A DNA stretch of 64,000 nt from a virus: positions 6,438-70,437 of IMG/VR virus record IMGVR_UViG_3300028283_000002; one strand, given 5' to 3'. A program made the position numbers and the translations under genes. Shown here piece after piece: positions 2,915 to 59,849 of the stretch (within the stretch, counting starts at the first letter, position 1; each line of letters starts with the position of its first letter). The notes below the pieces were generated by a model, which did not search any database, had not been told where the DNA came from, and saw nothing but the letters and a program-made list of their open reading frames with translations.

Positions 2915-3773
2915 TTAACGTATAACTGGATTATATATCCCTTCATTATTCTTAACCGTATCATCGTCCCATCTCTCTTCACCGTAAGGATCTAAAGCTG
3001 TTATTTTTCTGTTTCTTTTAATAGCCACACAGAACAAATGATTTTCTTGTTGAACTTTAAAAGTTTCTATTTCAAATCCTATTTTCTCTAATTCTTCTTT
3101 TAATTCTGTATCGTAATCCACTTCTGTTGGCTGATTAAAGAAATGGCAATATCCTCTACCTTTATCGTCTTTCAATCCCCACACCCAACTGTCTTTATTT
3201 TCTTCCGTCATAATAAAAGACGAGAACACCATTATACCATCGTCATTCAATCTCTTAAAAGATTTCTTCAAATAGTTAAATCTTTGCTTTTGTGAAAGAT
3301 GTTGAAACACATTCATAGAATAAACTATATCTAAATCTCTAGGTATATCCTTCGGAATTTTCCAACCATCGTTCTCGTATAAATTAGAAAATCTATCTAT
3401 TCTTTTATCAATATCTATGCCAAAATATTCAATTCTTGGCATTACCTTAGCACAAGTACTATGTAACCACTCAGCAAAAGCACCAAACCCGTAACCTATT
3501 TCTAATATCTTTACATTTTTACCACTATTTAAAGTGTTCTGAATTTTTGTAGCCACAGCACTTAAAGCTCCTTGTGTATAAGCGAAACTGTTATTTGCGA
3601 TGTTAGCTGTGTGCTCATCTTTAACTTTTGCACCTGTTACAGCAAGAAGTTTATAACCGTCATCTAATGTTTTCCAAAACGCCTGATTATTTTATCATCA
3701 ATATTCAATGTGTAACCATCATTATAATATTTATAATAAGGGGTTAAAAAGTTCTTTCTGTTACATTTCTTCA
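2915..3773 (-). CDS. Class I SAM-dependent methyltransferase with DPYGEERWDD motif; frameshifted near 3690
   Basis: ILEIGYGFG motif I, GIDID, VYSMNVFQHL. The frame stays open upstream of the track start (3556) to about 3690 and joins an ATG at 3773 (MKKCNRK...) if one A is added to an A4 run. Confidence 0.75.
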
Positions 3774-3784
3774 TTTTATTTGTT

Positions 3785-4168
3785 TTAAGTAATTAATTCT
3801 ATCTTGTATATCATCAAGGCATCGCGATTAGCAGTGAAAGTTATTTTATTCATACAATCCCACCATTTCTTGTATTCTTTATCAATTATATCTTTAGGAG
3901 CTTTTTTTATGAAACTTTCGTTATCTAATCTTTCCTCTGTTTTTTTCAAAAAATCTTTAAGACTTTCTAACTCTTTTTTCTTTTCGTTATATTTTTCCCA
4001 GAAATTTTCTTCTATATCTTCTCTCTTATCATAATTTACGGCCATAGATCTACCACCACTCTGAAACTTTATAGTATTAGCAGTTGGAAGAGCATCGTAC
4101 TCTTCTTCTGTAATATAAGTGATCTTACAGTTACAGAATTTTTCTATCATAAAATCAAATCTATTCAC
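3785..4168 (-). CDS. Small protein containing a valyl-tRNA synthetase C-terminal coiled-coil arm-like segment
   Basis: KKTEERLDNESFIKKAPKDIIDKEYKK matches the ValRS arm consensus KLxNxxFxxKAPxxVVxxE. Confidence 0.6.
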   Translation of the reverse strand: MNRFDFMIEKFCNCKITYITEEEYDALPTANTIKFQSGGRSMAVNYDKREDIEENFWEKYNEKKKELESLKDFLKKTEERLDNESFIKKAPKDIIDKEYKKWWDCMNKITFTANRDALMIYKIELIT

Positions 4169-5189
4169 CGTACTTTTTCTTAAAAGTATTGAAAAAACTA
4201 AGTATATCTTTATTAATAGTATCTTGTGACGAATTTATAATATATTCATTAAAAGGTTGCCTAGCAGTTCTAAAAGAGTCAATAAAAAATTGAAAATCCT
4301 CTTTCTTTAATTCTGGACAAAGTTTCTTAATAACGTTACCGTTAAACTTATCCTTAATACTTACCCTATCGTTCTCCTCTTTCTGGATGGCTTCAAGTTT
4401 TTCTTTAAAATGTGATTCTGGAAAGAACTTATCTACTCTATCATATATTTCTTGCAGATTTCCGTCTTCCCTGAATTTATAATTATCTTCACCAGTCTTC
4501 AATGGCTTTACATATTCTAACCATTCTTGATAAGTCTTTCTCTTTGTGTTTCTCTCCCTATTCATTTTATTGATACGATAAAGAGCAACACCAGCGTCAC
4601 TATACCCATAAGGTTCTAGATCAGAAACATATGGATTAAAATATTTCGATTTAACTATATAATCAAAAACTTCTTTAAGTGTATCAAATCCCTGGTGGAA
4701 TTTAGCTGGGCTTAAATCTAAGAATGATAAGATTTTATCTATATTTTTCGATATGGATATATTACCGAGTTTCTGTCCTTTTATATAGTGGTTATATGAT
4801 AGTCCGTCAAATCCAAATTTAAGATGGTTATATTTAGCCAGTTGACCAATAAGATTACCAAGATCGTTATAACTATAATAGTGAAAAGCGATATTAAAAT
4901 CTTCTGGTTTTATTTTTATAAAGTCTATTTGAAAATCCTTGTAGTTAAATGATATAACAGACTCACCGTTATTATTACATTCACATCTAGCAAAAATTCT
5001 CATTAGTATATCAGTTGGCACGGTGTCTTTGATAAGGACGTCCAAATCTCCAAAGTCCTTTTTATCTTTATAATAAAGAGGAATTTTATATTCTATCTCG
5101 TAGAATTTCATTATAGATTCGATGTTCGCTCTATATTTGTTGAATTCTATCAAAGGTAATCTTGATGTGCCAAAAAGTAATCCACCCAT
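4161..5189 (-). CDS. Pol-beta superfamily nucleotidyltransferase
   Basis: KKDFGDLDVLI (GDxD) and downstream QIDFI third acidic residue. Confidence 0.7.
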   Translation of the reverse strand: MGGLLFGTSRLPLIEFNKYRANIESIMKFYEIEYKIPLYYKDKKDFGDLDVLIKDTVPTDILMRIFARCECNNNGESVISFNYKDFQIDFIKIKPEDFNIAFHYYSYNDLGNLIGQLAKYNHLKFGFDGLSYNHYIKGQKLGNISISKNIDKILSFLDLSPAKFHQGFDTLKEVFDYIVKSKYFNPYVSDLEPYGYSDAGVALYRINKMNRERNTKRKTYQEWLEYVKPLKTGEDNYKFREDGNLQEIYDRVDKFFPESHFKEKLEAIQKEENDRVSIKDKFNGNVIKKLCPELKKEDFQFFIDSFRTARQPFNEYIINSSQDTINKDILSFFNTFKKKYGE

Positions 5190-5205
5190 TTTATTTATTT
5201 ATTTT

Positions 5206-5595
5206 TTAAGGGTTATCTGTAAAACAAATTCTTCCGTCTTCTGTTAAGAAAACCCACGCTTCAAATCTATATTTATCCGAATCAAAATAGAATTCATAAC
5301 ATTCTTCACCACCCAATTCTTTAATACTTACGCCACCACCATCGTGCTTCAATTTTTCTGCATTGATAGTAGCTGTAAAAGGATCATCTGGATTATTTTT
5401 CTTACTATATACAATTGGAAGTTTCCAATTTAAATATTTCACAACAATATCAAATAAATCCATTCTTGGAAAAGTGTCCCAGTACCAGTCTTTACGTGGT
5501 ACGTGTCTAGCGTGATAAAATTTCATCAAACTATTATCTTCCTTGAATTCAGTTGTTCCGATGAATTCTTTAAATTCTCTTATCAAATTATCCAT
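5206..5595 (-). CDS. Hypothetical protein
   Basis: 129-aa ORF with AATATATA motif upstream (5612-5619). Confidence 0.65.
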   Translation of the reverse strand: MDNLIREFKEFIGTTEFKEDNSLMKFYHARHVPRKDWYWDTFPRMDLFDIVVKYLNWKLPIVYSKKNNPDDPFTATINAEKLKHDGGGVSIKELGGEECYEFYFDSDKYRFEAWVFLTEDGRICFTDNP

Positions 5596-5699
5596 ATCGT
5601 TTTTTTTATTCTATATATTAATCTATCCACCAGTGATCTGATCCATAATCATAATGTTCATGGTGTTCCTGTCTACTTAATTCTTGCCTACTTAATTCA

Positions 5700-7034
5700 T
5701 CAGCCTTGTTCTAGTTCAGCTAGGATTTCTGGTCTCATTCTAACTGGATAATCTTCTGGTACTCCAGATTCAGTAGATAATTCTACTGTCTCAACAACAT
5801 CTGGTATCCCAGCTGTTCCAACAACTCCAGTGTATGGATTATAACCCCAATCATAACCATTCCCAGAACTTGATCTTAGACCAGATTTTAGCTCTTCGCC
5901 TTTCTTTCTCTTCTCGGCGTATTCTTTTTTTTTAGCTTCTATAATAGTGTGATCATTATACTGATCATACTTTTCGTTAAATATATAATCTCTTATTTCG
6001 TCACAAAGAACAGCGTGATCTTTCCAAATCCATCTATCTAATGTATAAGACCTCATAGCGTTACCACTATATACATTCATATTCATATAATCTATATAGA
6101 CTATTTCACTAGACATATGAACGTCGTGTTCCATATCACAGAAAACAAAGTAATTATACATAAGATGACCGCCCCTGTGATCACTAACGCAAATCACGTT
6201 AGTATTATCCTTTGGTGTATAATTACTTATTTTCCTTGTTTCTAAATCTAACCACTTAAAAGTATCAAGATAAGGATATAACTCAAAATGAGACTTATCT
6301 AAAATAATATCAAATTCTTTTATAACTTCTTCGTCATTGAAAATCAAATGTTTAGGAGTAGACCAGTTATTAAATTTCTTGTAATAACATTTATTTTCTT
6401 TAGCCCAATTGTAGAAATAGTTAATGTATAAATCATTACATACGTAAATTCTATCCATTAATCTGAAATCTGCTCCGTTCCAAAGAACTGCTCTACCCAT
6501 TACTTTATCATGTTGGTCTAACATTACTAACATGTTAATCTGCTCGGGGTTTTCAACATAGATTTGAAAGAAATTACTGGGTACACAAGCCATACAGGAA
6601 CCACCGAGTGATCCTCTTCTTTCAAAATAATTAACTTGAGCGTAATATTTAGCGACATCTTCACCTTTAACGACTTCCATACGGAAGACAGGTGGATCGA
6701 CGATAGATAAGAATTGAGTAGTAAAATTTTCTAGTTCCCAATCGTGTATTTTAAAAAGTTTTTTAATAACACTACCAGGTCTAGCGTGGTAGCGTTTTTT
6801 AGGTTCCCAAAAATTTTTATCTTCTAATTCAATTTTATCAATTCTATCTTTGGTAAGATAGCTTAGGTGTCCTTTACTTGTATGGGAAAGATCGAAGTAA
6901 TTAAAATTCTTTTCGGGGTGAGATAGTGTATTATCGTCTATATCTTCTTGTAAGAGAAGTCTTGCGATATCACTATTAATCTTTACTAATACGTTTTTTA
7001 ACTCTGGTGTAATTATTAATTTTCTACTTGCCAT
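5700..7034 (-). CDS. SCM/RALLW/YMDR family paralog 1 (uncharacterised)
   Basis: GSLGGSCM, NPEQINML, GRAVLW, LMDRIY, YPYLDTF motifs shared with four other ORFs in the window. Confidence 0.8.
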   Translation of the reverse strand: MASRKLIITPELKNVLVKINSDIARLLLQEDIDDNTLSHPEKNFNYFDLSHTSKGHLSYLTKDRIDKIELEDKNFWEPKKRYHARPGSVIKKLFKIHDWELENFTTQFLSIVDPPVFRMEVVKGEDVAKYYAQVNYFERRGSLGGSCMACVPSNFFQIYVENPEQINMLVMLDQHDKVMGRAVLWNGADFRLMDRIYVCNDLYINYFYNWAKENKCYYKKFNNWSTPKHLIFNDEEVIKEFDIILDKSHFELYPYLDTFKWLDLETRKISNYTPKDNTNVICVSDHRGGHLMYNYFVFCDMEHDVHMSSEIVYIDYMNMNVYSGNAMRSYTLDRWIWKDHAVLCDEIRDYIFNEKYDQYNDHTIIEAKKKEYAEKRKKGEELKSGLRSSSGNGYDWGYNPYTGVVGTAGIPDVVETVELSTESGVPEDYPVRMRPEILAELEQG

Positions 7035-7037
7035 ATT

Positions 7038-7337: not shown

Positions 7338-7385
7338 TAAATTGGTATTTTAACAAAATTAACGATAATATCTCGAAAATACAAA

Positions 7386-17453: not shown

Positions 17454-18776
17454 TTACTCTTCAAATAATTCTTGAAATAAATCACTTAAATCATCATCCA
17501 TTTCTTTTTGAGTTGGTTTACATTTAGATGCTATGTAACCTGGTTTACCTTTTTTTAGTTGATCAGAATCTGGTCTGCAATGAAAATTCTCGTCACCGTT
17601 TCCCCACACTGGTGTTGAAGTCATAGTTTTAGTTGGTTTTTCATATTTAACTTCATCTCTACCGTCTTTACCACGTGTAGTTACTATTGTATCATATTTA
17701 CTTGGATCAAAATAAATTACATTTGAAGTAGATGGTTTAACCTTAGTTAAGTCTAAACCAATTGTTTGTGCTGCTATTTTCATTGATACTGGATTTAATC
17801 CATCCATTGGCGTAACTGGTGAATCACCATCTATGGTGTGAGTTGGATATAGTTCAGAATTATCTATTTCTCTAACGAATACTCCAGGTGATTTATATTT
17901 TCTTTCTTGGAATTCTTCTTTTCTCTTTTGTAATCTTTCGTTTTGTTCTCTTAAATTAGTAATGATATTATGGCAACCGTGCACTTTAATTTCGTGTTCG
18001 GATATGATATAATCTTTATTATTAAAAGGAATTAAATATGCGTGAAATTCTACATCAAATGGAATACCTATTTCAAATATTTTATTTTCTAATTGATTTC
18101 TTATCTCATCAAAAGCTGAGAAAAAGATAGTATCGTAATCAATACTAATAATGTGTTCTGGGAATTCTTCTAAAATTGATTGTAAAATATTTCTTCCTGT
18201 TTCAGCCACAGCATCCGTGTTCCAACAAGTAAATAAAGAATGTCTAGAATTGACTGCTCCCCAAGTAAAATTAAGAAGTCTTCTTATCAATAAATCAACT
18301 CTCTCATTATTATATTTTTTAAATTCATCTTTGTTATTTAATAAGAACTTATATAGAATTGGAAACTTATCTGTGTTCCATTGAAGTTCTTGTTTGAAAA
18401 AACTCCTCTCTTCCCAATTCTCTTCACCGTAAGGATCTATATCTTTATGTGGTTTCTCTATTAAAGACAATTTTGATATAATCGTAGGATAAAAATCTTT
18501 GAAGGATAGTTCAGTAACACCCTTAAATATTCTATGCCTGTGTATTTCTTTTAATACGCTGAGTCCACCTCTGGTTGGTTCTTTTTCTGTTTTGAATTTT
18601 TTAATCTTGTATCCTGGCCACATTGTATCAAGAATGAGTTTCATTGTGTCTGTCCAGTCATCTAAAGAAAATTTAGGGGGGTTGTTGAAAGATTGTAATT
18701 TCTCGGGAGTGAGAAATTCGATAGAGTATTCGGTGCTATCCAGCAGGCGATATACATTTTCTATTGTTAATTCCAT
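17454..18776 (-). CDS. Degenerate family B DNA polymerase palm-like protein with internal DPYGEENW and C-terminal tail
   Basis: SFKDFYPTII (motif A-like), RRLLNFTWGAV (motif B-like), SIDYDTIFF (motif C-like). Confidence 0.6.
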   Translation of the reverse strand: MELTIENVYRLLDSTEYSIEFLTPEKLQSFNNPPKFSLDDWTDTMKLILDTMWPGYKIKKFKTEKEPTRGGLSVLKEIHRHRIFKGVTELSFKDFYPTIISKLSLIEKPHKDIDPYGEENWEERSFFKQELQWNTDKFPILYKFLLNNKDEFKKYNNERVDLLIRRLLNFTWGAVNSRHSLFTCWNTDAVAETGRNILQSILEEFPEHIISIDYDTIFFSAFDEIRNQLENKIFEIGIPFDVEFHAYLIPFNNKDYIISEHEIKVHGCHNIITNLREQNERLQKRKEEFQERKYKSPGVFVREIDNSELYPTHTIDGDSPVTPMDGLNPVSMKIAAQTIGLDLTKVKPSTSNVIYFDPSKYDTIVTTRGKDGRDEVKYEKPTKTMTSTPVWGNGDENFHCRPDSDQLKKGKPGYIASKCKPTQKEMDDDLSDLFQELFEE

Positions 18777-19851: not shown

Positions 19852-20232
19852 TTATTCACTAATATCTTCTTCACCGTATGGATCTAATTCGTTTACATTT
19901 CTATTAATTGTTCTAGTCCAAGTTATTGTTGATTTTTCAGGAATAAGAAAATCCTCTTCGTGACCGTTACTAACTCTACCAATAAAATGAAATTCATATT
20001 TTCTTTCATCTAGCACAACTTCACTAACTTTTATAGTCGCTCTGGCGTGCCATGTTCTAAGAGGCATTTTAAGATACTCAGAAACATTAACTGTTCTGCC
20101 TATCATTTCTTTTTTTAAATATTCAAATATATTATAGTAGGTTAAAAACTCATCACCCATTTCCCAAATAGATCTGGATATGGTTATATCTTCAACTGAT
20201 TCTTTAACGTAAGATGAAAAATTAATGATCAT
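19852..20232 (-). CDS. CTS-like N-terminus, putative beta-barrel, DPYGEE tail protein
   Basis: MIINFSSYVKES ... NELDPYGEEDISE*. Confidence 0.75.
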   Translation of the reverse strand: MIINFSSYVKESVEDITISRSIWEMGDEFLTYYNIFEYLKKEMIGRTVNVSEYLKMPLRTWHARATIKVSEVVLDERKYEFHFIGRVSNGHEEDFLIPEKSTITWTRTINRNVNELDPYGEEDISE

Positions 20233-20698
20233 CCCAATCCTCCTCTCCGTAAGGATCATGTTTAGATACTATGACTTTTGGTTGAATAAATGTAAATTCA
20301 TACATTTCTTTTGTAGATAAGATAAACAGAGAATCATCTGCTTTCACATTGATAACAATAGAATCATCTATAATTTCTACACCGTGATTTTTACCTACCG
20401 TGACTTTATGACCAGCCTTTGCCCCAAAAACTAAGAAAGGCTCGTTTTGACTGATTAAAATGGTGCTAGTACCAATATGTCTTAATCTAATATATCTTCC
20501 ACTAGATTCACATATTGCCTTGATTCTATTACCACAAGCAATTATATCTTTGTGATCTAAATTGTACAACTCTTTTAAAGACATAACCATAGGTTTATTC
20601 TTTCTTTCATCTTCTGTTTCGTGTGGGGGAAGAGCCAAAGGGGCATTCTTAAAAAGACTAGCATCAGATTGATCGAATTGTTCGTAAGTTTTTATCAT
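20222..20698 (-). CDS. CTS-like N-terminus plus DPYGEE tail protein
   Basis: MIKTYEQFDQS ... HDPYGEEDWDDH*. Confidence 0.8.
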   Translation of the reverse strand: MIKTYEQFDQSDASLFKNAPLALPPHETEDERKNKPMVMSLKELYNLDHKDIIACGNRIKAICESSGRYIRLRHIGTSTILISQNEPFLVFGAKAGHKVTVGKNHGVEIIDDSIVINVKADDSLFILSTKEMYEFTFIQPKVIVSKHDPYGEEDWDDH

Positions 20699-20726: not shown

Positions 20727-21131
20727 TTAATCGTCCCACTCCTCTTCACCGTACGGATCTTCTATCGTATAAATTCTTTTCGCTAACGCAACCTTAACTG
20801 GAAACTCTAAATTAACCATTATATCGGCATTTCTAATATCAAACCATATTTTGTGAATAGTTTTATTAGTGTGCCTATCGTATCTCTCGCTATATTTTAT
20901 TCTCTCGACCGTAACGGTCATTGGTTCAACCATTTTAATTATTTCTCCCGATGTATCACTATACATCCAATGAAATTGTACTATCTTATTTAAAAATAAT
21001 TTATCCAGATATCTAGTAAGAAGTCCGTTATCATTTAGTTCCCACATTTCAATTGTATCAATATAATCATCACATATTTTTAGAAGATCATACGATTTGT
21101 AACTTGAAAAATTTTCAAATATCTTAATCAT
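20727..21131 (-). CDS. CTS-like N-terminus, putative beta-barrel, DPYGEE tail protein
   Basis: MIKIFENFSSY ... EDPYGEEEWDD*. Confidence 0.8.
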   Translation of the reverse strand: MIKIFENFSSYKSYDLLKICDDYIDTIEMWELNDNGLLTRYLDKLFLNKIVQFHWMYSDTSGEIIKMVEPMTVTVERIKYSERYDRHTNKTIHKIWFDIRNADIMVNLEFPVKVALAKRIYTIEDPYGEEEWDD

Positions 21132-21570
21132 CCCACTCCTCCTCTCCATATGGATCTAAGGTCTTATCAACAACTATCTTTTTCCTTTCTTCTTTTAAAT
21201 GTACTATTACTGGTTCTAACGGGTAAACTTCATATGTATCAATATGACCAGACACCATAAAACTTATCGTAACATCAAAATCAAAAAAAGTAGTTACATC
21301 TACACTCAATATAACTCCAGTGATCTTCATCCCCTTCTTTTTTTCAATGTTACCTCGTGGATTTACATATTCCTCATCTTTATAAAATGTGCAAAGTTTA
21401 TTTAACACTTTCCTTTTTAATATCTCTTCAAATTGTTGGCAATCAACGTAATCGTCGTCTGGATTACAACATTTTTGACCTATATCAACAAGACTAACTT
21501 CTTCCGTGAATGGATATTCTAATAGAAGATCATCTATTTTATTTTCAAATATTTCAAATTTAGTTATCAT
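21124..21570 (-). CDS. CTS-like N-terminus, putative beta-barrel, DPYGEE tail protein
   Basis: MITKFEIFENK ... LDPYGEEEWDD*. Confidence 0.8.
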   Translation of the reverse strand: MITKFEIFENKIDDLLLEYPFTEEVSLVDIGQKCCNPDDDYVDCQQFEEILKRKVLNKLCTFYKDEEYVNPRGNIEKKKGMKITGVILSVDVTTFFDFDVTISFMVSGHIDTYEVYPLEPVIVHLKEERKKIVVDKTLDPYGEEEWDD

Positions 21571-22144: not shown

Positions 22145-22474
22145 CTATTCATCCCAATCCTCCTCCCCGTAAGGATCTGCTTCACTAAATATAATTTTAG
22201 GTTCTTTATGACGTTTGAAATTATTATTATCAGTTGTTACTCCATTAATATCACCTGTTAATCTGTAAAAAACATCAGTATCATCGTCGTAAGTGAAAGC
22301 CTCAGCCATTTTATGGCAAGTTTTACAAAGGTTAATACCGTGAGTTTTAAGGTATTCTTTTTCGTATAATTTTTTAAATTTTTTATTTGAATGTAGAGTT
22401 ACAGGAATATAGTGATGAAAAGTTGATTCCATCTCCCTACCACATATTTCACATATCCCCATAATTATATTCAT
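22145..22474 (-). CDS. Zn-binding HNH-like domain fused to DPYGEE tail
   Basis: CEICG...FHHYIP...LCKTCH, then ADPYGEEDWDE*. Confidence 0.6.
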   Translation of the reverse strand: MNIIMGICEICGREMESTFHHYIPVTLHSNKKFKKLYEKEYLKTHGINLCKTCHKMAEAFTYDDDTDVFYRLTGDINGVTTDNNNFKRHKEPKIIFSEADPYGEEDWDE

Positions 22475-24009: not shown

Positions 24010-25024
24010 CTTTTAAAAGATTATATTGATCATCAAGTGTACTAAAAAATCCAATTCCCATATATTCTTCCGTGTTCTTATTGAAGAGTCTGGCAGTATT
24101 CTTATATACTTCTATAACTACGTGATTAGTATAATATTCTTTGTATGTTCCTTGTGAGATGAACTCAAACATATTAGATGAGAGATCATCATTGAAGAAT
24201 GTCTCATCTAATGTATTAAGTGGTTCTTTCTGTTCCCAATGTCTTTGTAGTATCATATCTTTTAATGACTTTCAGCGTGAATTATTCCTCTAATAAATGG
24301 TATCTCTTCAATATCACAGATTTGACCATATTCACCATTCCAAACGTATTTTAAATCACCGTCTTCAACAATATAATTATCGTCGTCTTCAATCATAAGA
24401 TTAAAGAGATCTTCTTTGTTCTTGGCTAAGGCTGTAATAGTAATGGTGTCGTAACACACTTGATAAATTTTTAGTTTTTCCATATTAGTCGCCCCAATTT
24501 TCTTCCCCGTAAGGGTCTTCACTATTTATTTTTATAATTCCTTTTTCTAAAAGTTTCCTTCTATACGCCACTTTATTATTTTTATTGGTTTTTCTATAAG
24601 TTCAAAATATATTTGGAATAAAAATTCACAAACAAGAATTAAGACTAAAATTAGTATTGTAAAAACAACAAAAAATATACTAACTGGTGTATAAACAGCG
24701 ATCTTAGATAATATATCCATATTCCTATTATCTTCGGGATCGGATATGTAATAAGCAGCTAAACTACTCAGGAAATATAATAATAAAAAACCAATTAACC
24801 AAATCATAAATTTAATTTTTAGAAATCTGGTTTATATCGTCAACTATATGTTTAATACCATTTCTCATTAATATCATCACCAACTTCGCTTTATCTTGAT
24901 CGTTATCAACATTCAAATTAAAAGGAGTCTTCTCACTTATTACTGTGATAGTGTGCGGAGTATCTCTCTTCTCTTTAAACCATCCTGAAATTGCTTTTGC
25001 TCCTGCTTCGTCTATAATTGGCAT
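23987..25024 (-). CDS. Run of four small hypothetical genes (23987-24256, 24262-24522, 24547-24807 membrane, 24812-25024)
   Basis: Contiguous co-oriented ORFs of 70-89 aa. Confidence 0.5.
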
Positions 25025-35863: not shown

Positions 35864-37312
35864 TTAACTCTTCAAATTGAAACTAAAATAGCTCCACTCT
35901 GGATGTTGTCCAAAAGAGTAAAAGTCAAAACTCAAATTAATACCAGATATATCATCATCTGAGTATTCAAAGTTAGTTAGTGTGTTCTTGTTTATTACCA
36001 AATTAATACCAACTTCACTTTCTTGGGGTGTTCTACCTATAATGACTGTATCACCAAGATCGTTATTAGCAACTAAATCGAAATTGAAACTGTCTAATGT
36101 TTTGTTATATTTGAAAGTTTTACCATCTTTTCTCCATTGACCACTTGATGCTTCAACTATAAGATCAATGTTTTTCTTTGATGCTAAAACGAATGTAGCT
36201 GGTCCTCTTCTATTTTTAACATGTATATAATTAGAAATCATCGATATTCTATTACATATTTTAGAGAATGAATCTTTAGTTCTAGTATCAGAAGATAAAT
36301 CAGCAACTAATTCTGATTTGAGATGAGTCTTCGAATCTTCAATATTCTTATCAGATAATTCATGTACCTTTTTAACAAATTCATCGTTTATAAAATCTTT
36401 TATTCCAATTTCAATTCTTTTATCAGCCAACGGTATAAATCTTTCTTTCATTCTACCCACAGCATTAAATAATTTAACTTCTATTGTAGGTGTAGATACA
36501 TTTACTAAATCATCTGGGAATTTATTTATTGGATCACTGGCGGCTACCGAATCCCCTTCATTTAATACAAAATCTAAATAAGCAGCGTTAAATTTATTAT
36601 CACTAATAGAATAAACACCATATAAACCAAGTTTTTGTAAATCTTTAGCGATTGGAGGCATATCATTCACCACTTGCTCTTTACTTTTTTCAATGATGGT
36701 TTTAGTTAGTTCCTTACCAACGTATTCGTTGCCAAAATTATTTACAAATTTATCTATACTGTTTTCGTAATATTTATCACCAGCCAGTTGTGTTCTCTTT
36801 GTTTCAATTTTCTTCCTAGATAATTCATCGTGATATTTTTGATCAAATACAAACTTATTTCCATCAAATTGATTCCATATATTCTTTTTTGCTATTTCAT
36901 CCATTTCTTCTAAAACTTGATCACCACTCATCATTGGTGATCTTCCCATTTTTTCATAATCGGGTATCTGATTGAAACAGGAAACAAAATCCTTACTCTT
37001 TTCTTTTGGTTTATTTAAAGAATCTAAAACACAATCTCTACCAGGACTATCTACGCAATTTTCTATTATCATTTTTCTCAGATCTTCAGCCAGGTAATCT
37101 TTATGTGGCTTCTCACCAGGTTTAACTGTTTTCTTACTTCTATCAGAATAATCAACTTCTGTTACACTACAATCTGGTTCTAACTGGTAACTTTTTACAC
37201 AAGAAGGGTTATTTTTCAATATTCTGGCTGTTAATTCATTCAACTCAGATATATCTTTCTTATACTGTTCAAAATTAGTCTCATCTATTTCGTAACTACT
37301 TACTTTTCCCAT
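35864..37312 (-). CDS. Protein with C-terminal T4 gp23/gp24-like capsid-fold segment
   Basis: RISMISNYIHVKNRRGPATFVLAS resembles the gp23 RRGxGNFxIxS motif. Confidence 0.5.
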   Translation of the reverse strand: MGKVSSYEIDETNFEQYKKDISELNELTARILKNNPSCVKSYQLEPDCSVTEVDYSDRSKKTVKPGEKPHKDYLAEDLRKMIIENCVDSPGRDCVLDSLNKPKEKSKDFVSCFNQIPDYEKMGRSPMMSGDQVLEEMDEIAKKNIWNQFDGNKFVFDQKYHDELSRKKIETKRTQLAGDKYYENSIDKFVNNFGNEYVGKELTKTIIEKSKEQVVNDMPPIAKDLQKLGLYGVYSISDNKFNAAYLDFVLNEGDSVAASDPINKFPDDLVNVSTPTIEVKLFNAVGRMKERFIPLADKRIEIGIKDFINDEFVKKVHELSDKNIEDSKTHLKSELVADLSSDTRTKDSFSKICNRISMISNYIHVKNRRGPATFVLASKKNIDLIVEASSGQWRKDGKTFKYNKTLDSFNFDLVANNDLGDTVIIGRTPQESEVGINLVINKNTLTNFEYSDDDISGINLSFDFYSFGQHPEWSYFSFNLKS

Positions 37313-44735: not shown

Positions 44736-45929
44736 ATGGGTTCTACAAAATACTTATATCAATTTATACCAGATAAGTTTGAATATCTCACTAAAACCAA
44801 AGTAATTGAATTCAAGGAAGTTAATCTCAAAACAGCTTACCTTATTAATATAATTCACGAACTCATTCTTAAATTTTATTTTTCTAATAGAAACTATATT
44901 GATCTTGAACCAAATGAAGATATAAAATTTAATCTTTGGAGCTCTATCTTACGTAAGAAGTACGGAATGCACTACAATATTTACATGGAATATCTTGTAA
45001 ATATTGGTTTTATATCTATGACTTCTGATTATTACGTTGGTAAGAAAGCCAAGACATATAAGATAAACCCATTTGAGATAAATACTATAAAGAAAGTAAA
45101 AACTAACGACACCATACTAGCCAAGAAAAGCACTAAAGAATATTTAATGCAATCAATTACAAGCTATTGTAACAGCCCAATTAATCCAAAGATAAGAAAG
45201 AAACTCGTTGACGACCTTTATCACGTTCAAATAGATTACGAAAAATCTATTAATCTACTCAACGACTTAAAGAAGAACGGTAAAATAGAAATTAATAAAT
45301 TTTATAAAAATCTTCATAGTGTTGAAAGTATTAAATCCAATAACCTATTTTTCAAATTTGACGAGTACGGTAGATTCCATACGAACTTCACAATTCTTAA
45401 AAGAGAAATAAGACAAAATTTCTTAAAGATTGATAACGAAGAAATTGTAGAGATTGATATTGGCAACTCACAACCTTTATTCTTAGCCTTATTATTACAA
45501 GAAGAAATGCAACCAGATGATCCAGAAATCAATAATTACATATGGTTGGCAAGACAAGGATTATTTTACGAACACATATTAAATAATTTCACCAACTTAA
45601 CTAGGAGTGATGTTAAACTATTAACCTACAAAGTATTATTTGGTCATAACGGTATAAACTCAACAGAAAATAAAATATTTCAAAGTTTATTTCCAAAAAT
45701 ATATGACTATATAATTGAATATAAGAAGGTTAATGATAATTATAAATCAATGGCGCATATACTTCAAAAGATGGAGAGTGATTTCATATTTGGTAAAGTT
45801 GTAACTGAGATATATGATAAGATACCAGGTATAAGGTTATTCACTGTACATGACTCAATTTTATTTCCTATTAAATACGAGAAGCAGGTGAGAGAAATAT
45901 TTGAAAGAAATAAGAAGGAAATATTTTAA
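44736..45929 (+). CDS. PolA-palm-like protein with N-terminal putative wHTH
   Basis: GRFHT, EIDIGNSQP (motif A-like), LQKMES, TVHDSIL (motif C). Confidence 0.6.
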   Translation: MGSTKYLYQFIPDKFEYLTKTKVIEFKEVNLKTAYLINIIHELILKFYFSNRNYIDLEPNEDIKFNLWSSILRKKYGMHYNIYMEYLVNIGFISMTSDYYVGKKAKTYKINPFEINTIKKVKTNDTILAKKSTKEYLMQSITSYCNSPINPKIRKKLVDDLYHVQIDYEKSINLLNDLKKNGKIEINKFYKNLHSVESIKSNNLFFKFDEYGRFHTNFTILKREIRQNFLKIDNEEIVEIDIGNSQPLFLALLLQEEMQPDDPEINNYIWLARQGLFYEHILNNFTNLTRSDVKLLTYKVLFGHNGINSTENKIFQSLFPKIYDYIIEYKKVNDNYKSMAHILQKMESDFIFGKVVTEIYDKIPGIRLFTVHDSILFPIKYEKQVREIFERNKKEIF

Positions 45930-46570
45930 TCATCATCCCATTCTTCTTCACCGTATGGATCGAAAGGATTTATTCCTCCAATGATCTTTATTGGTTTTCT
46001 ATGATCTATGTAGAAAGATTTACCGTCTTCTGTATAAATTTTTAACAGATCTCCTTGATGAATAGCATCCAGTGAAATTGTAATTTTTACTGGAACACAT
46101 TTAGCTATTTTTTTAATATTTGGATTAGAAGCATTAAAATTCGATAAAGCATCAGCGTTTTTACTTCCTGTAAAAGTAATTTCTTTTCCAAAATATTTCT
46201 CAAATTCTTTCATAAACGTATCTATGAAAAAGAATCTACCTGTTGGTGATATATCAAAATATACACTATGTCTTCTATCACTTGATCTAACTAAATAAGG
46301 TGTACAGTATTGACTTTCACTGGCTCTGTGATATATTACGTCTTCAACATTCATTATAGCGTTATGAGAAGTACTCATATTACATTTAAAAGTTTCAGAC
46401 ATGAAGTTATTTGTGTGGAAAGACACTATTCTACCAACAAGATGGTCTCTGAAAATTTCAGCCATTTTTTCACCAGCTTCAGTATCAATTCTTCTAATAT
46501 CATCAGAGAAACTAATAACTTTATCAGTTTTCATAGCCTCATTTAAAAAATTATTGAATTTAGTTCTCAT
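45926..46570 (-). CDS. CTS-like N-terminus, two putative beta-barrels, DPYGEE tail
   Basis: MRTKFNNFLNEAMK ... FDPYGEEEWDDD*. Confidence 0.75.
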   Translation of the reverse strand: MRTKFNNFLNEAMKTDKVISFSDDIRRIDTEAGEKMAEIFRDHLVGRIVSFHTNNFMSETFKCNMSTSHNAIMNVEDVIYHRASESQYCTPYLVRSSDRRHSVYFDISPTGRFFFIDTFMKEFEKYFGKEITFTGSKNADALSNFNASNPNIKKIAKCVPVKITISLDAIHQGDLLKIYTEDGKSFYIDHRKPIKIIGGINPFDPYGEEEWDDD

Positions 46571-46914
46571 TTTTCCCAAACTTCTTCACCGTAAGGATCT
46601 AACTCAGAGTGAGGATTAATTTTTCTTTTCTTTTTAATTTCAATAGCCTCTTTGTACGTCTTTGGACATTCACCTCCAACCATATCAAACTCTTTTTCTG
46701 TTAATACTATCGCTTTATAAGTATATCCTAAAGCAAATATAGCGTCTTTGGCTGATAGATTATGGTTTTGACGTTTTAATTTACCGTCAACATACATACC
46801 AATCCAATCACCGTCTGTACTTTCTACAAATCTTATAACTGGATCTGGTCTTTCATAAGAAGATTCATCACTTAGATTTACACCTATTGCTTCATTAAAT
46901 TTTTTAATTTTCAT
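46567..46914 (-). CDS. CTS-like N-terminus plus DPYGEE tail protein
   Basis: MKIKKFNEAI ... ELDPYGEEVWEK*. Confidence 0.8.
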   Translation of the reverse strand: MKIKKFNEAIGVNLSDESSYERPDPVIRFVESTDGDWIGMYVDGKLKRQNHNLSAKDAIFALGYTYKAIVLTEKEFDMVGGECPKTYKEAIEIKKKRKINPHSELDPYGEEVWEK

Positions 46915-52973: not shown

Positions 52974-53843
52974 TTATTCCCATACATATAATCCATTTCC
53001 CCAATTCCTGGAATTTAATCCACACTTTCTACAAATCCAACCTCCACCATGTTCTCTTTCCACCTTTGATTTTTTGTTACATTTAGGACAAGTATATATT
53101 TGAGTATCATCGTTATAAAAATCACTCAAAGGTAAAACCCCAGCGTCTAAAGGATTATTATAGTCTTCTAAAGGTCCATCAAAACCAAACACCTCATGGT
53201 CTGTGTCGTCAAATTCTTCTCCAAAAGAACAAACGTGCTTATCTCCTAAAATTTTCCCAATAAATTTATTTTGACCGTACCTGTTATTATTAGCACGCCA
53301 CTCAGCTAACAATTCATCACCTCTAGCCATTTGTTGGTGATATAGTTCTATCTCTCTATCCCATCTACCTGGTTGCCTTGCTAACTCTCTATCATCCCAA
53401 ATCTCTTCCCCGTATGGATCTAGTTCTCCCCTTGGATCACCAGCTTTATATTTAGTATTTTCATCAACCTCCCACAACTCTTCACCGTAAGGATCTAGAT
53501 ATGGGTCAAAAATTTGTTTAATAGAGGACATCACTTCTATTTTATCGTTAAATGAAATGGAAGTGAAATTTTGATCTTGTGGGTTCTTTGTAGAAAATAA
53601 TTTAAAATAATCTCTATTTGGCCAAACAACTACTCTCATTGGTACGATGTTTGTATTCTTAACTCTTCCTCTAAAATCTTTTTGTACTATATTTAATCTT
53701 CTACCTAATAACATTTTTTTAAATTGAGGTATAGCTCTCTTTCTATCGTTGGCGCATTGTAACAACACTTCATTGAAAGAAAAAACGTCCCCAATTTTAA
53801 CTGTAACAGCTTCATTTATATATGTAGAAAAATTAGTTATCAT
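52974..53843 (-). CDS. CTS-like N-terminus, two internal DPYGEExW motifs, C-terminal Zn ribbon
   Basis: MITNFSTYINEAV; LDPYGEELW; LDPYGEEIW; CPKC...CRKC. Confidence 0.75.
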   Translation of the reverse strand: MITNFSTYINEAVTVKIGDVFSFNEVLLQCANDRKRAIPQFKKMLLGRRLNIVQKDFRGRVKNTNIVPMRVVVWPNRDYFKLFSTKNPQDQNFTSISFNDKIEVMSSIKQIFDPYLDPYGEELWEVDENTKYKAGDPRGELDPYGEEIWDDRELARQPGRWDREIELYHQQMARGDELLAEWRANNNRYGQNKFIGKILGDKHVCSFGEEFDDTDHEVFGFDGPLEDYNNPLDAGVLPLSDFYNDDTQIYTCPKCNKKSKVEREHGGGWICRKCGLNSRNWGNGLYVWE

Positions 53844-54824: not shown

Positions 54825-55136
54825 TTATTCATCTTCCCATACTTCTTCACCATATGGATCTAATTCTCCTCTTGGGTTTCCACCGATATCTTCGAACGCG
54901 GATCTAAGTTCATTTAGAATAGTAAACAAAGCGTTCGAAAAATCACCAATAGTAACGTTTTCAATTATTTTTTTACTATCGTGTTTAGAAAGCTCTTTTT
55001 TAGTTTCATCCCTCAATGATCTCAATATGTTGATTATATCAGTTTTAGAAATCCAAATATCGCCATCGATCTCTTTCCATTTACTAGATCTCAACCCTTT
55101 ATGTTCATCAGATTCGTTAAATCTTTTAATTCTCAT
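54825..55136 (-). CDS. CTS-like N-terminus plus DPYGEE tail protein
   Basis: MRIKRFNES ... PRGELDPYGEEVWEDE*. Confidence 0.8.
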   Translation of the reverse strand: MRIKRFNESDEHKGLRSSKWKEIDGDIWISKTDIINILRSLRDETKKELSKHDSKKIIENVTIGDFSNALFTILNELRSAFEDIGGNPRGELDPYGEEVWEDE

Positions 55137-55171
55137 AAATAAAAAAGTTTTATTTTATACCGCTATATATA

Positions 55172-55210
55172 AAATAAAAATCCCAGACTTTCGATCTGGG
55201 ATTTTTATTT
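55172..55210. terminator. Bidirectional rho-independent terminator after rtcB
   Basis: AAATAAAAATCCCAGA-CTTTCGA-TCTGGGATTTTTATTT perfect 16-bp stem. Confidence 0.85.
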
Positions 55211-56699
55211 ATGACTTACCTCTTATTGTTCTTAATATCTTTCGATCTTTTCTAAATTTTTTATTATCTACAAAATCATCATCGCCTATTTGACGTTTCT
55301 TTTCTTTTTCATTCTTTCTCATATCTTTAAAATTTTCATTTTCAGATGATTTTATATTTAATATTGGTTTAATTCTATCTATGATAATAGCTGTTGGACC
55401 AATAGCTTTTTCAATCATTTTAGGATCTTTATAAACTCTTGGACTCTCATCCAATGTTGATTTACATACAGAAGTTGAAACTATGTTTTTCATATCAAAT
55501 TTGAATCTTTCTAAATCTAATGTTCTGTTTGCTTGTCCTCTGCTCATAATTCTACCAGCTCCATGATTTGCTGAAAAATTCCATTCGGGGTTAGATTTAC
55601 CTTCACATATTAACATACCATCCTTCATAGAAAGTGGAATAATCATTCTTTGTCCAATGTACGACGTTATGGCCCCTTTACGGATAATCATATTTTCTTC
55701 TTCAAAATTTATATAGTTATGAATAGATTCAATTCTTTCCTCTTCTTTCAAAGATAAGGCTTCAAGTATTCTATTTATAATAGTTTCTCTATTAAATTTA
55801 GAATAAAATTGAGCAAAAATCATATCCGTAAAATAATCTATAGCATATTGACCTTCTAAATATTCAGAGCCATTCATATTAGTTTCAAAATCAATATCCA
55901 ATTCTTTCTTGATATCTTTAATCTTGAAATCAATATCTATTTTTGGAAAATTCCTTTTAATATCTTCTATTTTTTCTTTTAAAATTACTCTTCTCTTGTA
56001 TTCGAGATTTTCTTTGGCTATTTTCATATGATATTCACATATCATTTTTCCGAAATTTCTAGAACCAGTATGAACAGTGATCCAAAAAGTTTTATAAGTA
56101 TCTGATAATCCAATCTCTAGATAATGATTGCCGGACCCGAGCGTTCCTATACCAAATTCAGCATTTTGTCTCATTCCAATTTGTTTGCATTTTTCAATGA
56201 ACCAATCGTATGTAAATTCAATTGAAGTATAATTGGTATTAAATTTTTTATTATAACATAGAATAAATTTCTTAGATTGATCATTAGTTTCTTTCCAATT
56301 AAAATTTTCCTCAAAATAATTAGATGGAACAGAACTTCTATCCATGATATTATTCCCCATAGGTATAATTTTTCTAATTTTTTCATTAATTTTTAAAAGT
56401 TCATCTCTGTTAGTCGTGAGAATTTTACCTACATTAACAGATAAAACTGAACATCCAATGTCTACGCCGATCCAAGCTGGGGATAATTTTTCACCTAATT
56501 CTATGGTCATTCCGATCACAGCATTCCCCGCACCTGCGTGAACGTCTGGCATTACTACTATTTTACAACCCCTTGTCGCAATATTACTCACGATATTGTA
56601 AATCTGTTTCAATGCAGATTCTTCAACATCATCTATCATAATCTTAGCAGTTGTGTATTTTCCCTTAATTTCTAACATAATTTTTATGTATTTATACAA
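55209..56699 (-). CDS. rtcB: RtcB RNA ligase
   Basis: MPDVHAG, GVDIGC, GTLGSGNHYLE, HTGSR, IHNY, RKGA, HGAGR.MSR, DESP..YK. Confidence 0.95.
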   Translation of the reverse strand: MYKYIKIMLEIKGKYTTAKIMIDDVEESALKQIYNIVSNIATRGCKIVVMPDVHAGAGNAVIGMTIELGEKLSPAWIGVDIGCSVLSVNVGKILTTNRDELLKINEKIRKIIPMGNNIMDRSSVPSNYFEENFNWKETNDQSKKFILCYNKKFNTNYTSIEFTYDWFIEKCKQIGMRQNAEFGIGTLGSGNHYLEIGLSDTYKTFWITVHTGSRNFGKMICEYHMKIAKENLEYKRRVILKEKIEDIKRNFPKIDIDFKIKDIKKELDIDFETNMNGSEYLEGQYAIDYFTDMIFAQFYSKFNRETIINRILEALSLKEEERIESIHNYINFEEENMIIRKGAITSYIGQRMIIPLSMKDGMLICEGKSNPEWNFSANHGAGRIMSRGQANRTLDLERFKFDMKNIVSTSVCKSTLDESPRVYKDPKMIEKAIGPTAIIIDRIKPILNIKSSENENFKDMRKNEKEKKRQIGDDDFVDNKKFRKDRKILRTIRGKS

Positions 56700-56792
56700 A
56701 ATTACAACACTTCTTCAAATAAAAAAAATAAAAACTGAAAAAAATGATATTTTTCTATTTATATATAATGTAATACAAAATAAGACAAAATT

Positions 56793-56954: not shown

Positions 56955-58101
56955 AAAACCTAATGGATATTGGTCCTTTGAAAGATGTCAAAAAGAGGCC
57001 TTAAAATATAATACCAGAAAAGAATTTTTTCTAAAAAACTCAGGGTGTTATGATAAATCTATTAAACAGGGTTGGATGGAACAAATATGTGGACACATGG
57101 TCATGGGTAGTGTTTTTTGGACTAAAGAAAAATGTCAAGAAGAATCCTTGAAATACAAAACTAGAAATGAATTTAGATTAAATAGTTTGGCTTACGCTTC
57201 ATCATTAAGAAACAAATGGTTAGATGAAATTTGTTCACACATGTCAGAAATTAGGAAACCGACTGGGTATTGGACAAAAGAAAGATGTAAAGAAGTAGCA
57301 GAAAAATGTGATTCAAAAATAGAATTCAATAGAAAATATAGAGGAGCATATTTATCTTCATGTAAAAATAATTGGTTAAATGAGATTTGTTCAAATATGA
57401 TAGGACCAAACAGGAAAAATAAAAAATGGTTGATATATTCCTTTATAATTTTAGATAAATATGTATATATTGGATTAACAAGTGATGAAAAATCGAGAAA
57501 TCACTTTCATTTAACTAATAAAAAAAGTGCAGTTTATCAATTCACAACAGAAAATAAAATTGAAAAAGAAAAAATTAAATATAAGATCGAAATAGATAAT
57601 ATAGTAGATGAAAATCTATCAGCTTCATTAGAAAAATTTTATTTAAATTCATATTTGAAAAAAGGATATATTAAGTTGAATAAGAATGAAACTGGCGGTT
57701 TGGGCGGAATGATTTTGAAATGGACGAAAGAAAGATGTGAAGATGCAGCCAAATCTTGTAAAACTAGATCGGAATTTAGTAATAAATTCGAAGGCGCGTA
57801 TAGTTCATCTAGAAAAAATAAATGGTTAGAAGAAATATGTTTTCATATGAAACCGATTAATAGAAAACCAAATAATTACTGGACAAAAGAACTATGTTTT
57901 GATATAGCTAAGAATTACAAAACTAAATATGAATTTGAAAAAAAATCTAAAGGCGCCTATAAATATGCTTTAAGAAATAATTTATTGCGTTCCGTGATAA
58001 GTAACACCTGGTTTATTTGGTGTTCTATTACTCAAGTAATACCTTTTATTCTTCTCATCTACACAAGAGTACCTCATTGTGTCCATGAATGGATTTCCTG
58101 A
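56941..58101 (+). mobile_element. GIY-YIG homing endonuclease with tandem helical repeats
   Basis: LIYSF...VYIGLT...R...E...N core flanked by about five YWTxExC...YxxRxEF...WL repeats. Confidence 0.85.
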
Positions 58102-59109
58102 TGATGGTTTGTGTTTACCACCCCAGTCTTTAGGTAATGTTACTTCCAGGAGACCAGCGTCTCCTATATTGTAACTTTTCATACCATTTTTCTTGGCGTA
58201 ATCCATTAAAATAGTTTTTTCTTCTGGTCCTATTGCATATACTCTATCCATGTAAACTTGCCCGTCATCTAATCTCCATACAACTGCTCTAGCCATTAAT
58301 TTATCGTCTTCGTTTGTATATGTACAAAGAGCAATTTTATCTGGATTTTCACAATATAAATTAAAATAAACAGAACAACTTGAGCTACTCATACAAGAAT
58401 TCCAAAGTTCTGACGAACCATAAGAACTCTTAGCGTAATGTTCGTTACTATACCAATATCTAATATCTTCACCTGTAACTACATCAAGATTTTTACCTTC
58501 ACCGAGTACGATGACTTTAAAAGCCGCCCTATAAAGAGTAACTAATTCCTCAACTTGTTTATCAGATAATGTTGGAATAAGTTTTTTAAGAGTTCTACCA
58601 ACCTTCATAGCTTGTCTACCTTTTTTAAGGTCTGGGTCGCCTTCAAATTTCTTTGCTGGAAGATATGTTATAACTTCCATATTATCTTTATCAATATCAA
58701 AGAATGATACGTCAATATATTCTTCTGTTGGTTCGAATTTCATTCTTCTAAAAATTCTTAATAATTCAGTAGATGCTTTATAAGGTACAACTTCTCTATT
58801 TTGAATTTTCTTTGCTAAATCTTCTGGAATTATTTCATAAATATTATCTATTGGTACGTACAAACAATGTTTTGGTTTGCCTATGTCTTTGTGACCAGAG
58901 TGTAATCTAGGAGAAAAAGAAACAAGAAATTCGATAAGAATATAACCATATTCCTTCATTTCGATAACGTTACCAAGTTGGGAACTAACATCAATACCGT
59001 CCCATTGACCCATGGTTCTCACCATTTTACCAATAGCTAGGTCTGCTCTTGTTGGTTTCTTAGGTGTTTTTTTCACAGCTTCATTTATAAAATTGTTATA
59101 AGTTATCAT
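57982..59109 (-). CDS. SCM/RALLW/YMDR family paralog 4
   Basis: MITYNNFINEAVKK; SELWNSCM, NPDKI, ARAVVW, YMDRVY, NPFMDTM. Confidence 0.8.
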   Translation of the reverse strand: MITYNNFINEAVKKTPKKPTRADLAIGKMVRTMGQWDGIDVSSQLGNVIEMKEYGYILIEFLVSFSPRLHSGHKDIGKPKHCLYVPIDNIYEIIPEDLAKKIQNREVVPYKASTELLRIFRRMKFEPTEEYIDVSFFDIDKDNMEVITYLPAKKFEGDPDLKKGRQAMKVGRTLKKLIPTLSDKQVEELVTLYRAAFKVIVLGEGKNLDVVTGEDIRYWYSNEHYAKSSYGSSELWNSCMSSSSCSVYFNLYCENPDKIALCTYTNEDDKLMARAVVWRLDDGQVYMDRVYAIGPEEKTILMDYAKKNGMKSYNIGDAGLLEVTLPKDWGGKHKPSSGNPFMDTMRYSCVDEKNKRYYLSNRTPNKPGVTYHGTQ

Positions 59110-59126
59110 TTCTTTATCAGATTCTT

Positions 59127-59849
59127 TTAATTTTCCCAATTCTCTTCACCGTAAGGGTCTAGGGTCTTTAATCTCATATCCATTATTTTAATTGGTTGTG
59201 TATGAATTAATAATTGTGAAGTTTTATCGTCACATTCAACTATGATAAAATCTTGTGTTGTACCATTATGTACACCAATTCTAATAACATGTTTAGTGTA
59301 TTTTATTTGATCTCCGCCTTTTATCGGTTTACCCTGATAGGTTAAGAGTTGATCAAGAAAATGTTCTTCAAAGAAATCTAAAAATTTACCAACATCAAAT
59401 AACTTCGATTTTCCTTCGTCTTGCCAATTATATCTTACCTTTCTTTCCTTATCTTCAAATATAACAGGGTAATAATCACCCTTATTGTTACCAAGTATTA
59501 CGTCATTTACTTCTAAAATCTTTTGTCTTCCATTTTCATCCACCACACCAATTATCTTACCATTTATGGATTTTTTCAATTCTTCTATCATTAACTCAGC
59601 AGATTCTTTCTTTGCGCTCTCAACTGCGACCTTTTTTTCTTTTTCTAGGTCACTCATTTTTTTCTTAAGTTCAGCCAGAGCCTTCTCTATATCTCTAGTG
59701 TTCTTATTAGTGGTATTGGTCAAAATATTTTGAAAATCATTATAAAATGACTTAGTATCGTATATTTTCTTAGCTCCTGGTGGATCTGGTTTTATCATAT
59801 CTTCATTTAAGACTTCAAGATTTAAATAAGAATTATATTTCTTTAACAT
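59127..59849 (-). CDS. CTS-like N-terminus, two putative beta-barrels, DPYGEE tail
   Basis: MLKKYNSYLNLEVLNE ... LDPYGEENWEN*. Confidence 0.75.
   Translation of the reverse strand: MLKKYNSYLNLEVLNEDMIKPDPPGAKKIYDTKSFYNDFQNILTNTTNKNTRDIEKALAELKKKMSDLEKEKKVAVESAKKESAELMIEELKKSINGKIIGVVDENGRQKILEVNDVILGNNKGDYYPVIFEDKERKVRYNWQDEGKSKLFDVGKFLDFFEEHFLDQLLTYQGKPIKGGDQIKYTKHVIRIGVHNGTTQDFIIVECDDKTSQLLIHTQPIKIMDMRLKTLDPYGEENWEN

Follow-up and report, generated by a model that had tools for sequence, protein, structure and literature searches.

The stretch of DNA analysed here (the window, 64,000 nucleotides) comprises bases 6438-70437 of a viral contig of 152,665 bp with 30% G+C (IMG/VR record IMGVR_UViG_3300028283_000002). 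Several of its genes encode proteins that share a short acidic peptide, referred to below as the tag. The tag is defined as DPYGEExW and in its extended form as [DE]-[ILV]-D-P-[Y/L/F]-[G/N/D]-E-E-x-W-[DE]-[DE]. The contig is 88% identical at the DNA level to LR756501, the genome of an uncultured phage (735,411 bp), for which our own calling gave ~1,026 open reading frames (ORFs). The largest genome reported by Al-Shayeb et al. 2020 measures 735 kb; the largest genomes fall into the Mahaphage clade and Bacteroidetes are predicted as their hosts (PMC7162821).

Copies of the tag and selection on the peptide

There are 14 copies of the tag in the window, 36 in the contig and, according to a back-translated pattern, 103 in LR756501, where about 90 of the ~1,026 ORFs (about 9% of the proteins) carry it. 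The 13 copies listed in the initial annotation are all present on the minus strand and in frame with ORFs. Their coordinates are correct except for the last copy, which spans 59136-59159 and had been placed one base off. Nine of these 13 copies end close to the stop codon (2-4 residues away), as had been stated. The additional, 14th copy is located at 24494-24517 and is also on the minus strand.

The S-adenosylmethionine (SAM) methyltransferase ORF 2915-3556 carries DPYGEERW (2969-2992) near its end, with 17 residues after the Trp. This gene is apparently disrupted in the window (2915-3774, minus strand). A different frame, at 3685-3774, encodes what corresponds to residues 1-28 of the homologues, and ~59 homologue codons are missing before the ORF resumes. 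The methyltransferase of LR756501 is intact (345 aa). The 440-aa ORF 17454-18776 contains an internal copy, DPYGEENW (18414-18437), at residue 114. Its initial description as a degenerate PolB is unsupported: the ORF has no Pfam match and instead holds a capsid-like piece, residues 311-362 resembling the major capsid protein (49% over 57 aa, E 3e-8).

The C-terminal copy of ORF 19852-20259 is a variant in which the Trp is replaced (DPYGEEDISE, 19861-19884); the counterpart in LR756501 is longer and has a standard tag at the same position. ORF 20222-20698 (158 aa) ends in DPYGEEDWDDH (20234-20257) and starts with MIKTYEQF, which resembles a capsid-targeting sequence (CTS). ORF 20727-21149 ends in DPYGEEEWDD (20736-20759) and its true start is likely the internal MIKIFENF, where the end of the upstream gene, TGGGATGATTAA, overlaps the start ATGATTAAA. 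The same C-terminal DPYGEEEWDD (21133-21156) is found in ORF 21124-21570 (148 aa) together with a CTS-like start (MITKFEIFE). At this and other array junctions (window 20727-21156) the tag end TGG GAT GAT TAA contains ATGATTAA and hence the MIK start of the next gene. The Cys-rich ORF 22145-22474 (109 aa) ends in DPYGEEDWDE (22154-22177). It had been called an HNH-like Zn protein; a match of this kind exists but is weak (E 0.0019) and below the Pfam cut-off.

The copy at 24494-24517 (DPYGEENWGD) lies in a 38-codon frame, -1 relative to the small membrane-protein ORF 24547-24807. The LR756501 orthologue has the tag in frame, the two versions differing by a 4-nt indel within a GAAAG repeat. The intact tag in the -1 frame of this region (24488-24807, minus strand) reflects either an assembly error or a recent frameshift. 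C-terminal copies are present in ORFs 45926-46579 (217 aa; DPYGEEEWDDD, 45938-45961), 46567-46914 (115 aa; DPYGEEVWEK, 46576-46599), 54825-55136 (103 aa; DPYGEEVWEDE, 54837-54860) and 59127-59849 (240 aa; DPYGEENWEN, 59136-59159). ORF 52974-53843 (289 aa) contains two internal tags within 53397-53495, DPYGEELW (53472-53495) and DPYGEEIW (53397-53420), which are 25 residues apart and both upstream of a C-terminal zinc ribbon. An RtcB tRNA-splicing ligase (55209-56699, minus strand, E 2e-55) is encoded amid the tagged genes.

The tag is more frequent than background. The back-translated pattern had no match in 100 dinucleotide shuffles of the window, compared to 13 in the window itself, and the reversed pattern had none in LR756501, compared to 103. 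DPYGE is the most widely shared 5-mer of the LR756501 proteome (90 ORFs), the next unrelated word being present in 13 ORFs. Cellular genomes (596 Gb) yielded 72 matches, all of them single, close to the level of chance (~35 expected by our estimate). Many multi-copy stretches are among the matches listed for the IMG/VR and JGI metagenome scans. The initial annotation knew of no description of this motif. Our literature search for it returned unrelated eukaryotic matches only and no publication describing it, and the matches reported for ~117 carriers against Pfam-A are domain families of the carrier bodies, none of which models the tag. When a tag-bearing protein, or just its last 41 residues, served as the query of word-based homologue searches, the sole matches were this protein and a single close relative.

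Judged from its sequence variation, the tag is selected as a peptide rather than as DNA, in agreement with the initial annotation. The synonymous codon variation reported there is real: 243 copies comprise 65 distinct 18-mers and the synonymous sites vary. The Glu codons of the tag correspond to background usage, and the Asp, Pro, Tyr and Gly codons deviate from it, mostly by a moderate bias to CCT and GGT. One-residue variants of the tag number only 56, compared to 0 in the reversed control. The substitutions affect just the Tyr (to L/F), the Gly (to D/N/S) and the Trp, with D, P, E and E nearly fixed. For Tyr and Gly such exchanges would be typical of a residue that serves as a hydrophobic anchor and of one that forms a turn, respectively. 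Between the contig and its LR756501 orthologues the tag columns are 99.1% identical, whereas the rest of the same proteins is 85.7% identical. The extended logo is [DE]-[ILV]-DPYGEE-[DNE]-W-[EDN]-[DE], preceded by a lysine-rich stretch; the 15 residues upstream of the tag are rich in lysine in many carriers.

Position of the tag and nature of its carriers

Of the 139 tags in the two genomes for which ORFs were called, 58 are located at most 6 residues from the C-terminus (6.5 expected, p ~1e-39); N-terminal placement is not enriched overall among the same tags. Among 468 unique copies, 170 are C-terminal (~36%, compared to ~5% expected) and 266 are followed by at least 25 residues. The remaining copies are N-terminal or interdomain, and in multidomain proteins they lie outside the Pfam domains. 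A 673-aa protein (L022:3431-5452) has six tags at a spacing of about 105-118 residues, and a 1,233-aa deaminase/CCA-adding/HD fusion has four, all outside its domains. The initial term 'tail tag' describes the strong preference for C-termini but is too narrow. The tag is a motif of exposed segments, with C-termini strongly favoured.

Clustering of 242 carriers with the tag masked gave 128 groups by BLAST, and clustering of the 110 residues upstream of it gave 92 groups by phmmer. The claim that the carriers are otherwise unrelated thus largely holds, with one exception in the window: ORFs 45926-46579 and 59127-59849 are paralogues of each other. According to Pfam, recognisable carriers include the SAM methyltransferase, whose initial identification is confirmed, tandem arrays of leucine-rich repeat (LRR) proteins, a GNAT acetyltransferase, a phosphoribosyltransferase, a nucleotidyltransferase, zinc ribbons, DUF7919 and DUF6934. 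The LRR arrays (L086:2619-6608 and L081:8448-12253) consist of three to four proteins (PF12799), each with a CTS-like leader and the tag at its N-terminus. Metagenome contigs contain arrays of ~80-residue SH3-like mini-proteins, each with the tag at its end. That the carriers are 'effectors' was an assumption of the initial annotation; they include enzymes of tRNA and nucleotide metabolism, membrane proteins and fragments of structural proteins.

The tag is appended to complete, unrelated domains. Homologues of the methyltransferase at 40-54% identity end directly after the fold, whereas those at 58% identity or more have, with one exception, a linker of ~10 residues and the tag added. AlphaFold models of the methyltransferase and of an LRR carrier have a mean predicted local distance difference test (pLDDT) score of 85 and 92, respectively. 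The tag segments of these models score mostly below 50 and are located outside the fold, in extensions of low confidence that are predicted to be flexible.

Distribution in relatives and links to the head pathway

Relatives of the phage were identified by their capsid proteins (99% to 46% identity), including genomes of 640 and 675 kb. The tag is present at capsid-protein identities of at least 78% (G010, an IMG/VR contig of L229 at 78%, and other IMG/VR contigs). The complete 640- and 675-kb relatives (G001 and G002) have no copy, and neither do a 344-kb fragment (G003, the IMG/VR contig of L243) and fragments at 64-72% identity. An 86-kb fragment at 80% identity has no copy either, which may be explained by its tag-poor head region. 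Carriers rarely have any homologue in the 640-kb relative (7 of 90, compared to 183 of all 1,026 ORFs). Sixty-eight proteins are shared by the tag-positive LR756501 and G010 and missing from all three tag-free genomes G001, G002 and G003. In the genomes compared, the tag is restricted to a sub-clade of the Mahaphage-type huge phages, with its boundary between 72 and 78% capsid-protein identity.

Position 3 of the tag is L, Y or F in similar numbers in G010. This contig has a second C-terminal peptide, KEE[DN]IEW plus one hydrophobic residue, which is shared by 14 small ORFs from 12 BLAST clusters and coexists with the DP[L/Y/F]GEE tags. In G003, 31 small ORFs (24 BLAST clusters) end in K[ML]GLL, always exactly at the terminus; this peptide is absent from LR756501 and G001. 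On the evidence of these genomes, shared terminal peptides are a habit of the phage family, with lineage-specific codes. Their turnover between lineages suggests phage-encoded, co-evolving readers.

The capsid protein of LR756501 is gp23-like (PF07068 at 83 bits, 609-aa frame). An 807-aa protease-scaffold ORF (L232:3500-5923, plus strand, corresponding to 73913-76336) has an N-terminal domain similar to S77/gp21, with a match of 24 bits that is below the cut-off. Its middle part consists of ~14 tandem repeats ending in EYIAE, the same pattern as in the CTS-like leaders. About 110-130 ORFs of LR756501 (>10%) start with such a leader, MIKK[FY]xx[FY][IL]xE. The CTS of T4 has the sequence MKTYQEFIAE. 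It comprises ~10 N-terminal residues from the Met, residues 4 and 7 serving in targeting and residues 8 and 10 in processing (PMC9026906). The spacing of the leader corresponds to these positions. The match between the leaders and the EYIAE repeats suggests that a T4-like capsid-targeting leader corresponds to one unit of the repeat in the scaffold. CTS-like leaders are found on 39% of the tag carriers and on 10% of the other ORFs (Fisher p 1e-11). In N-terminal tag carriers the leader runs directly into the tag.

LR756501 contains twenty small ORFs that correspond to diverged fragments of the capsid, portal, protease-scaffold and sheath proteins of the same genome (for example 145891-146127, 276342-276932, 542326-542892 and 553796-554218). 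They are 30-65% identical to the parent proteins, apart from one 13-residue stretch at 85%. The capsid fragments together span most of the length of the capsid protein, and one fragment is a protease paralogue that has apparently lost its catalytic His and Ser, as seen from the aligned motifs. Such fragments are enriched among the carriers (8 of 90, compared to 12 of 931 other ORFs, p 1.4e-4) and could be decoys or assembly modulators. Eight fragment ORFs of this kind are present without the tag in the tag-free relative G001; the fragments are therefore older than the tag. In the window, the 482-aa ORF 35864-37312 (minus strand) is weakly similar to the T4 gp23 capsid family, with an E value of 6e-5 that narrowly misses the cut-off. 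It is far from the head module and may be a vertex-type paralogue.

A promoter-like motif, (T)AATATATA, is located ~30 nt upstream of 230 start codons in LR756501, with a 20-fold intergenic enrichment, and precedes the portal, protease-scaffold and capsid genes. It was rejected as the mark of a carrier promoter class: 63% of the carriers have it, compared to 51% of the others. Because AATATATA-type motifs stand before about half of the transcription units, they do not discriminate carriers. A rarer upstream motif, TAnnTTTG, resembles what we take to be the Bacteroidota -7 element.

Interpretation of the tag and comparison with known systems

On balance, the tag is probably a lineage-specific short linear docking or address motif that is read by one common partner. 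A docking motif had been proposed in the initial annotation. Selection on the peptide, its attachment to unrelated domains and its location in flexible extensions are consistent with this proposal; the hub that was part of it did not emerge and the strict tail position does not hold. We infer binding by a partner, the identity of that partner and the effect of docking. A single common partner would read the tag with a pocket that accommodates the D-P-x-G turn, offers one hydrophobic anchor site to the residue at position 3 and another to the Trp, and has a basic rim facing the pair of invariant glutamates. By binding to it, ~100 clients without any other relationship would be gathered at a common site or machine. 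It is likely that the phage itself encodes this partner and that the partner can be reached from the cytoplasm.

The leading candidate for the destination, put forward tentatively, is the head-assembly pathway, where the tag would act beside the CTS-like leaders. Cytoplasmic or membrane-proximal phage assembly and a host hub are alternatives. A bolder version, which we regard as rather doubtful, is that a phage receptor directs the ~100 proteins to the growing head, from which they would be injected, or to another compartment built by the phage, and that sister lineages have swapped, co-evolving codes. Among the sorted proteins would be LRR adaptors, enzymes and those fragments of capsid, portal, scaffold and sheath that look dominant-negative.

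Several observations weigh against a docking motif and, in particular, against capsid loading. No partner was found for the tag. With seven invariant residues the tag is stricter than most linear motifs, so that a substrate site of an enzyme or a small, self-contained structure might be indicated instead. The tag is found on integral membrane proteins at an average rate (7 of 90 carriers, compared to 96 of 936 other ORFs), on their basic, presumably cytoplasmic side. The main capsid protein and the protease-scaffold ORF have no tag, and no carrier is encoded in the head-gene region of LR756501. The tag is acidic, and scaffold and portal are acidic as well. The link to the CTS-like leaders could be no more than a sign that both features belong to the same pool of fast-evolving accessory genes. 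Complex prediction with the capsid protein (L232:6001-7749), the C-domain of the scaffold (L232:5177-5920) and a 40-residue tag tail gave a score of 0.00, which is evidence neither way. Ranking the contig proteins by conservation relative to LR756501 revealed no clear candidate for a constrained hub. SH3-like barrels (the 'FKVGDKV' mini-proteins, L391) were considered as a self-receptor and rejected, since their signature is present in only 19 of 1,026 ORFs.

Among the rival explanations, the tag could be a degron or a handle for an unfoldase or chaperone, by which an AAA+ machine or protease of phage or host removes, remodels or unfolds proteins in a timed manner. This is unlikely. Like degrons, the tag is located on exposed termini, and cytoplasmic tails of membrane proteins are tagged. 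LR756501 encodes a two-ring ClpA/B/C-like Hsp100 (744 aa, 352240-354745, minus strand) with a tagged zinc-ribbon ORF directly after it. This Hsp100 is missing from the complete tag-free relatives G001 and G002 (640 and 675 kb) and present in G010, but the same protein is found in G003, which is tag-free over 344 kb. As a receptor of the tag it is thus no clean correlate and was rejected. Moreover, LR756501 encodes no ClpP, known C-terminal degrons are hydrophobic whereas the tag is acidic, and there is no evident reason to destabilise methyltransferase, tRNA-repair and acetyltransferase enzymes alike.

Slightly less plausible still is a self-contained module that works without a partner, either as a small cap that forms a turn or binds an ion, as a tail that aids solubility, or as an acidic flap that masks a nucleic-acid-binding surface by folding back onto the neighbouring lysine-rich segment. 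At the G position the only replacements are N, D and S, which would suit a fixed turn. Intramolecular clasps between acidic and basic segments exist in SSB and HMGB1, and the lysine-rich segment upstream of the tag makes such a clasp conceivable. However, effects on solubility or charge do not need seven invariant residues, AlphaFold packs the tag on neither the methyltransferase nor the LRR fold, and N-terminal copies often lack a basic neighbour.

A processing or junction signal is quite improbable. In this case a protease of the S77/gp21 type would cut polyproteins and leaders at the tag, and the C-terminal copies would be remnants of cutting or of gene fission. In favour of it, an S77-like protease domain and a gp23-like capsid protein are encoded by the phage, and tags are located between the domains of repeat proteins (the six copies of L022; L338). 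Head proteases of the phiKZ type follow an S/A/G-x-E cleavage rule, which the G-E-E of the tag fits. In the 12 residues after internal tags [ILMV]-x-E reaches 29%, compared to 15% further downstream; this enrichment is only two-fold and in part due to composition. The majority of tags stand 2-4 residues ahead of a natural stop; cleavage there would be pointless, yet selection is equally strict, and an invariant site of eight residues is far beyond the needs of a T4-type protease. Finally, a nucleic-acid element with the peptide as by-product, either a recombination junction for cassettes or a translational-coupling signal, is highly improbable: ~40% of the C-terminal tags overlap the start of the next gene (ATGATTAA) and the CCT/GGT bias would fit, but the free synonymous positions and fixed amino acids largely refute it, other reading frames and the non-coding strand are free of the motif, and most copies are away from gene ends.

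If one receptor reads the tag, as the favoured docking motif implies, a single pull-down would show the principle by which roughly one tenth of the proteome of a 735-kb phage is organised. The tag is a label, readable from sequence only, for a functional class of ~100 orphan proteins per genome. The role of the hundreds of orphan genes in huge phages is otherwise hard to approach in uncultured viruses. The code turnover between sister lineages is a natural experiment for finding the receptor by co-variation. Should it turn out to be an address of the capsid or another compartment, the tag would be a portable handle for loading or co-localising proteins.

Eukaryotic W-acidic motifs (read by kinesin light chain) and DPF/DPW/NPF motifs (AP2, EH-domain proteins) bring many clients to one hub. 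The tag resembles them in its turn of D/N-P-aromatic, in E-x-W-[DE][DE] and in the possibility of many copies in linkers. The receptors of these motifs are eukaryotic TPR, appendage or EH domains, and the likeness is one of form only. Encapsulation peptides of bacterial microcompartments are terminal amphipathic helices of ~18 residues. The tag does not belong to them: no confident helix is predicted (pLDDT mostly below 50) and the D-P and Gly residues disfavour a helix.

The acidic tails of SSB, T7 gp2.5 and T7 gp4 combine an acidic stretch with a terminal aromatic residue and its free carboxylate and serve as docking handles. The initial annotation had drawn the analogy to SSB. Acidic stretch and aromatic anchor are indeed shared, but the analogy is loose because SSB needs a free terminal residue and the tag is not strictly C-terminal. 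Its Trp is followed by variable acidic residues and 64% of the copies are not terminal. The identification as an SSB-type tail was rejected, 266 of 468 copies being at least 25 residues from the end and the C-terminal copies ending in variable D/E/N/K. SSB-type tails occur on one or two proteins of DNA replication, whereas the tag is present on ~100 unrelated proteins; no SSB or OB-fold family is among the reported Pfam matches of the carriers.

Encapsulin cargo peptides and the tail of the HK97 protease are short terminal extensions, usually C-terminal, that dock unrelated cargo proteins to a shell of the HK97 fold and are disordered until bound. Like them, the tag is short, present on unrelated proteins and preferentially C-terminal. 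They are, unlike the tag, hydrophobic, rich in Gly, Leu and Ile and nearly always terminal. The acidic tag with its two aromatic residues does not match this hydrophobic consensus.

In T4, the CTS is carried by the internal proteins IPI-III and Alt (Mullaney and Black 1996, reviewed in PMC9026906 and PMC3012670). Both systems place one short peptide on diverse, fast-evolving proteins, the role of the tag as an address being our reading. The tag phage also has a gp23-type capsid protein and a gp21/S77-type protease, and many carriers have in addition a leader of the form aromatic-x-x-aromatic-[IL]-x-E. The T4 CTS is ~10 residues long, strictly N-terminal, hydrophobic, amphipathic and cut off. 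In contrast, the tag is acidic and unrelated in sequence, is located at either end or internally and is also found on membrane proteins. The tag itself is thus not the CTS, which differs in sequence and position and is better represented by the separate leader on 39% of the carriers. Proteins that carry the T4 CTS are located inside the capsid, which for the tag carriers is a candidate destination. The tag belongs to a known kind, the shared targeting or docking peptide, and differs from each known case in sequence, chemistry or position.

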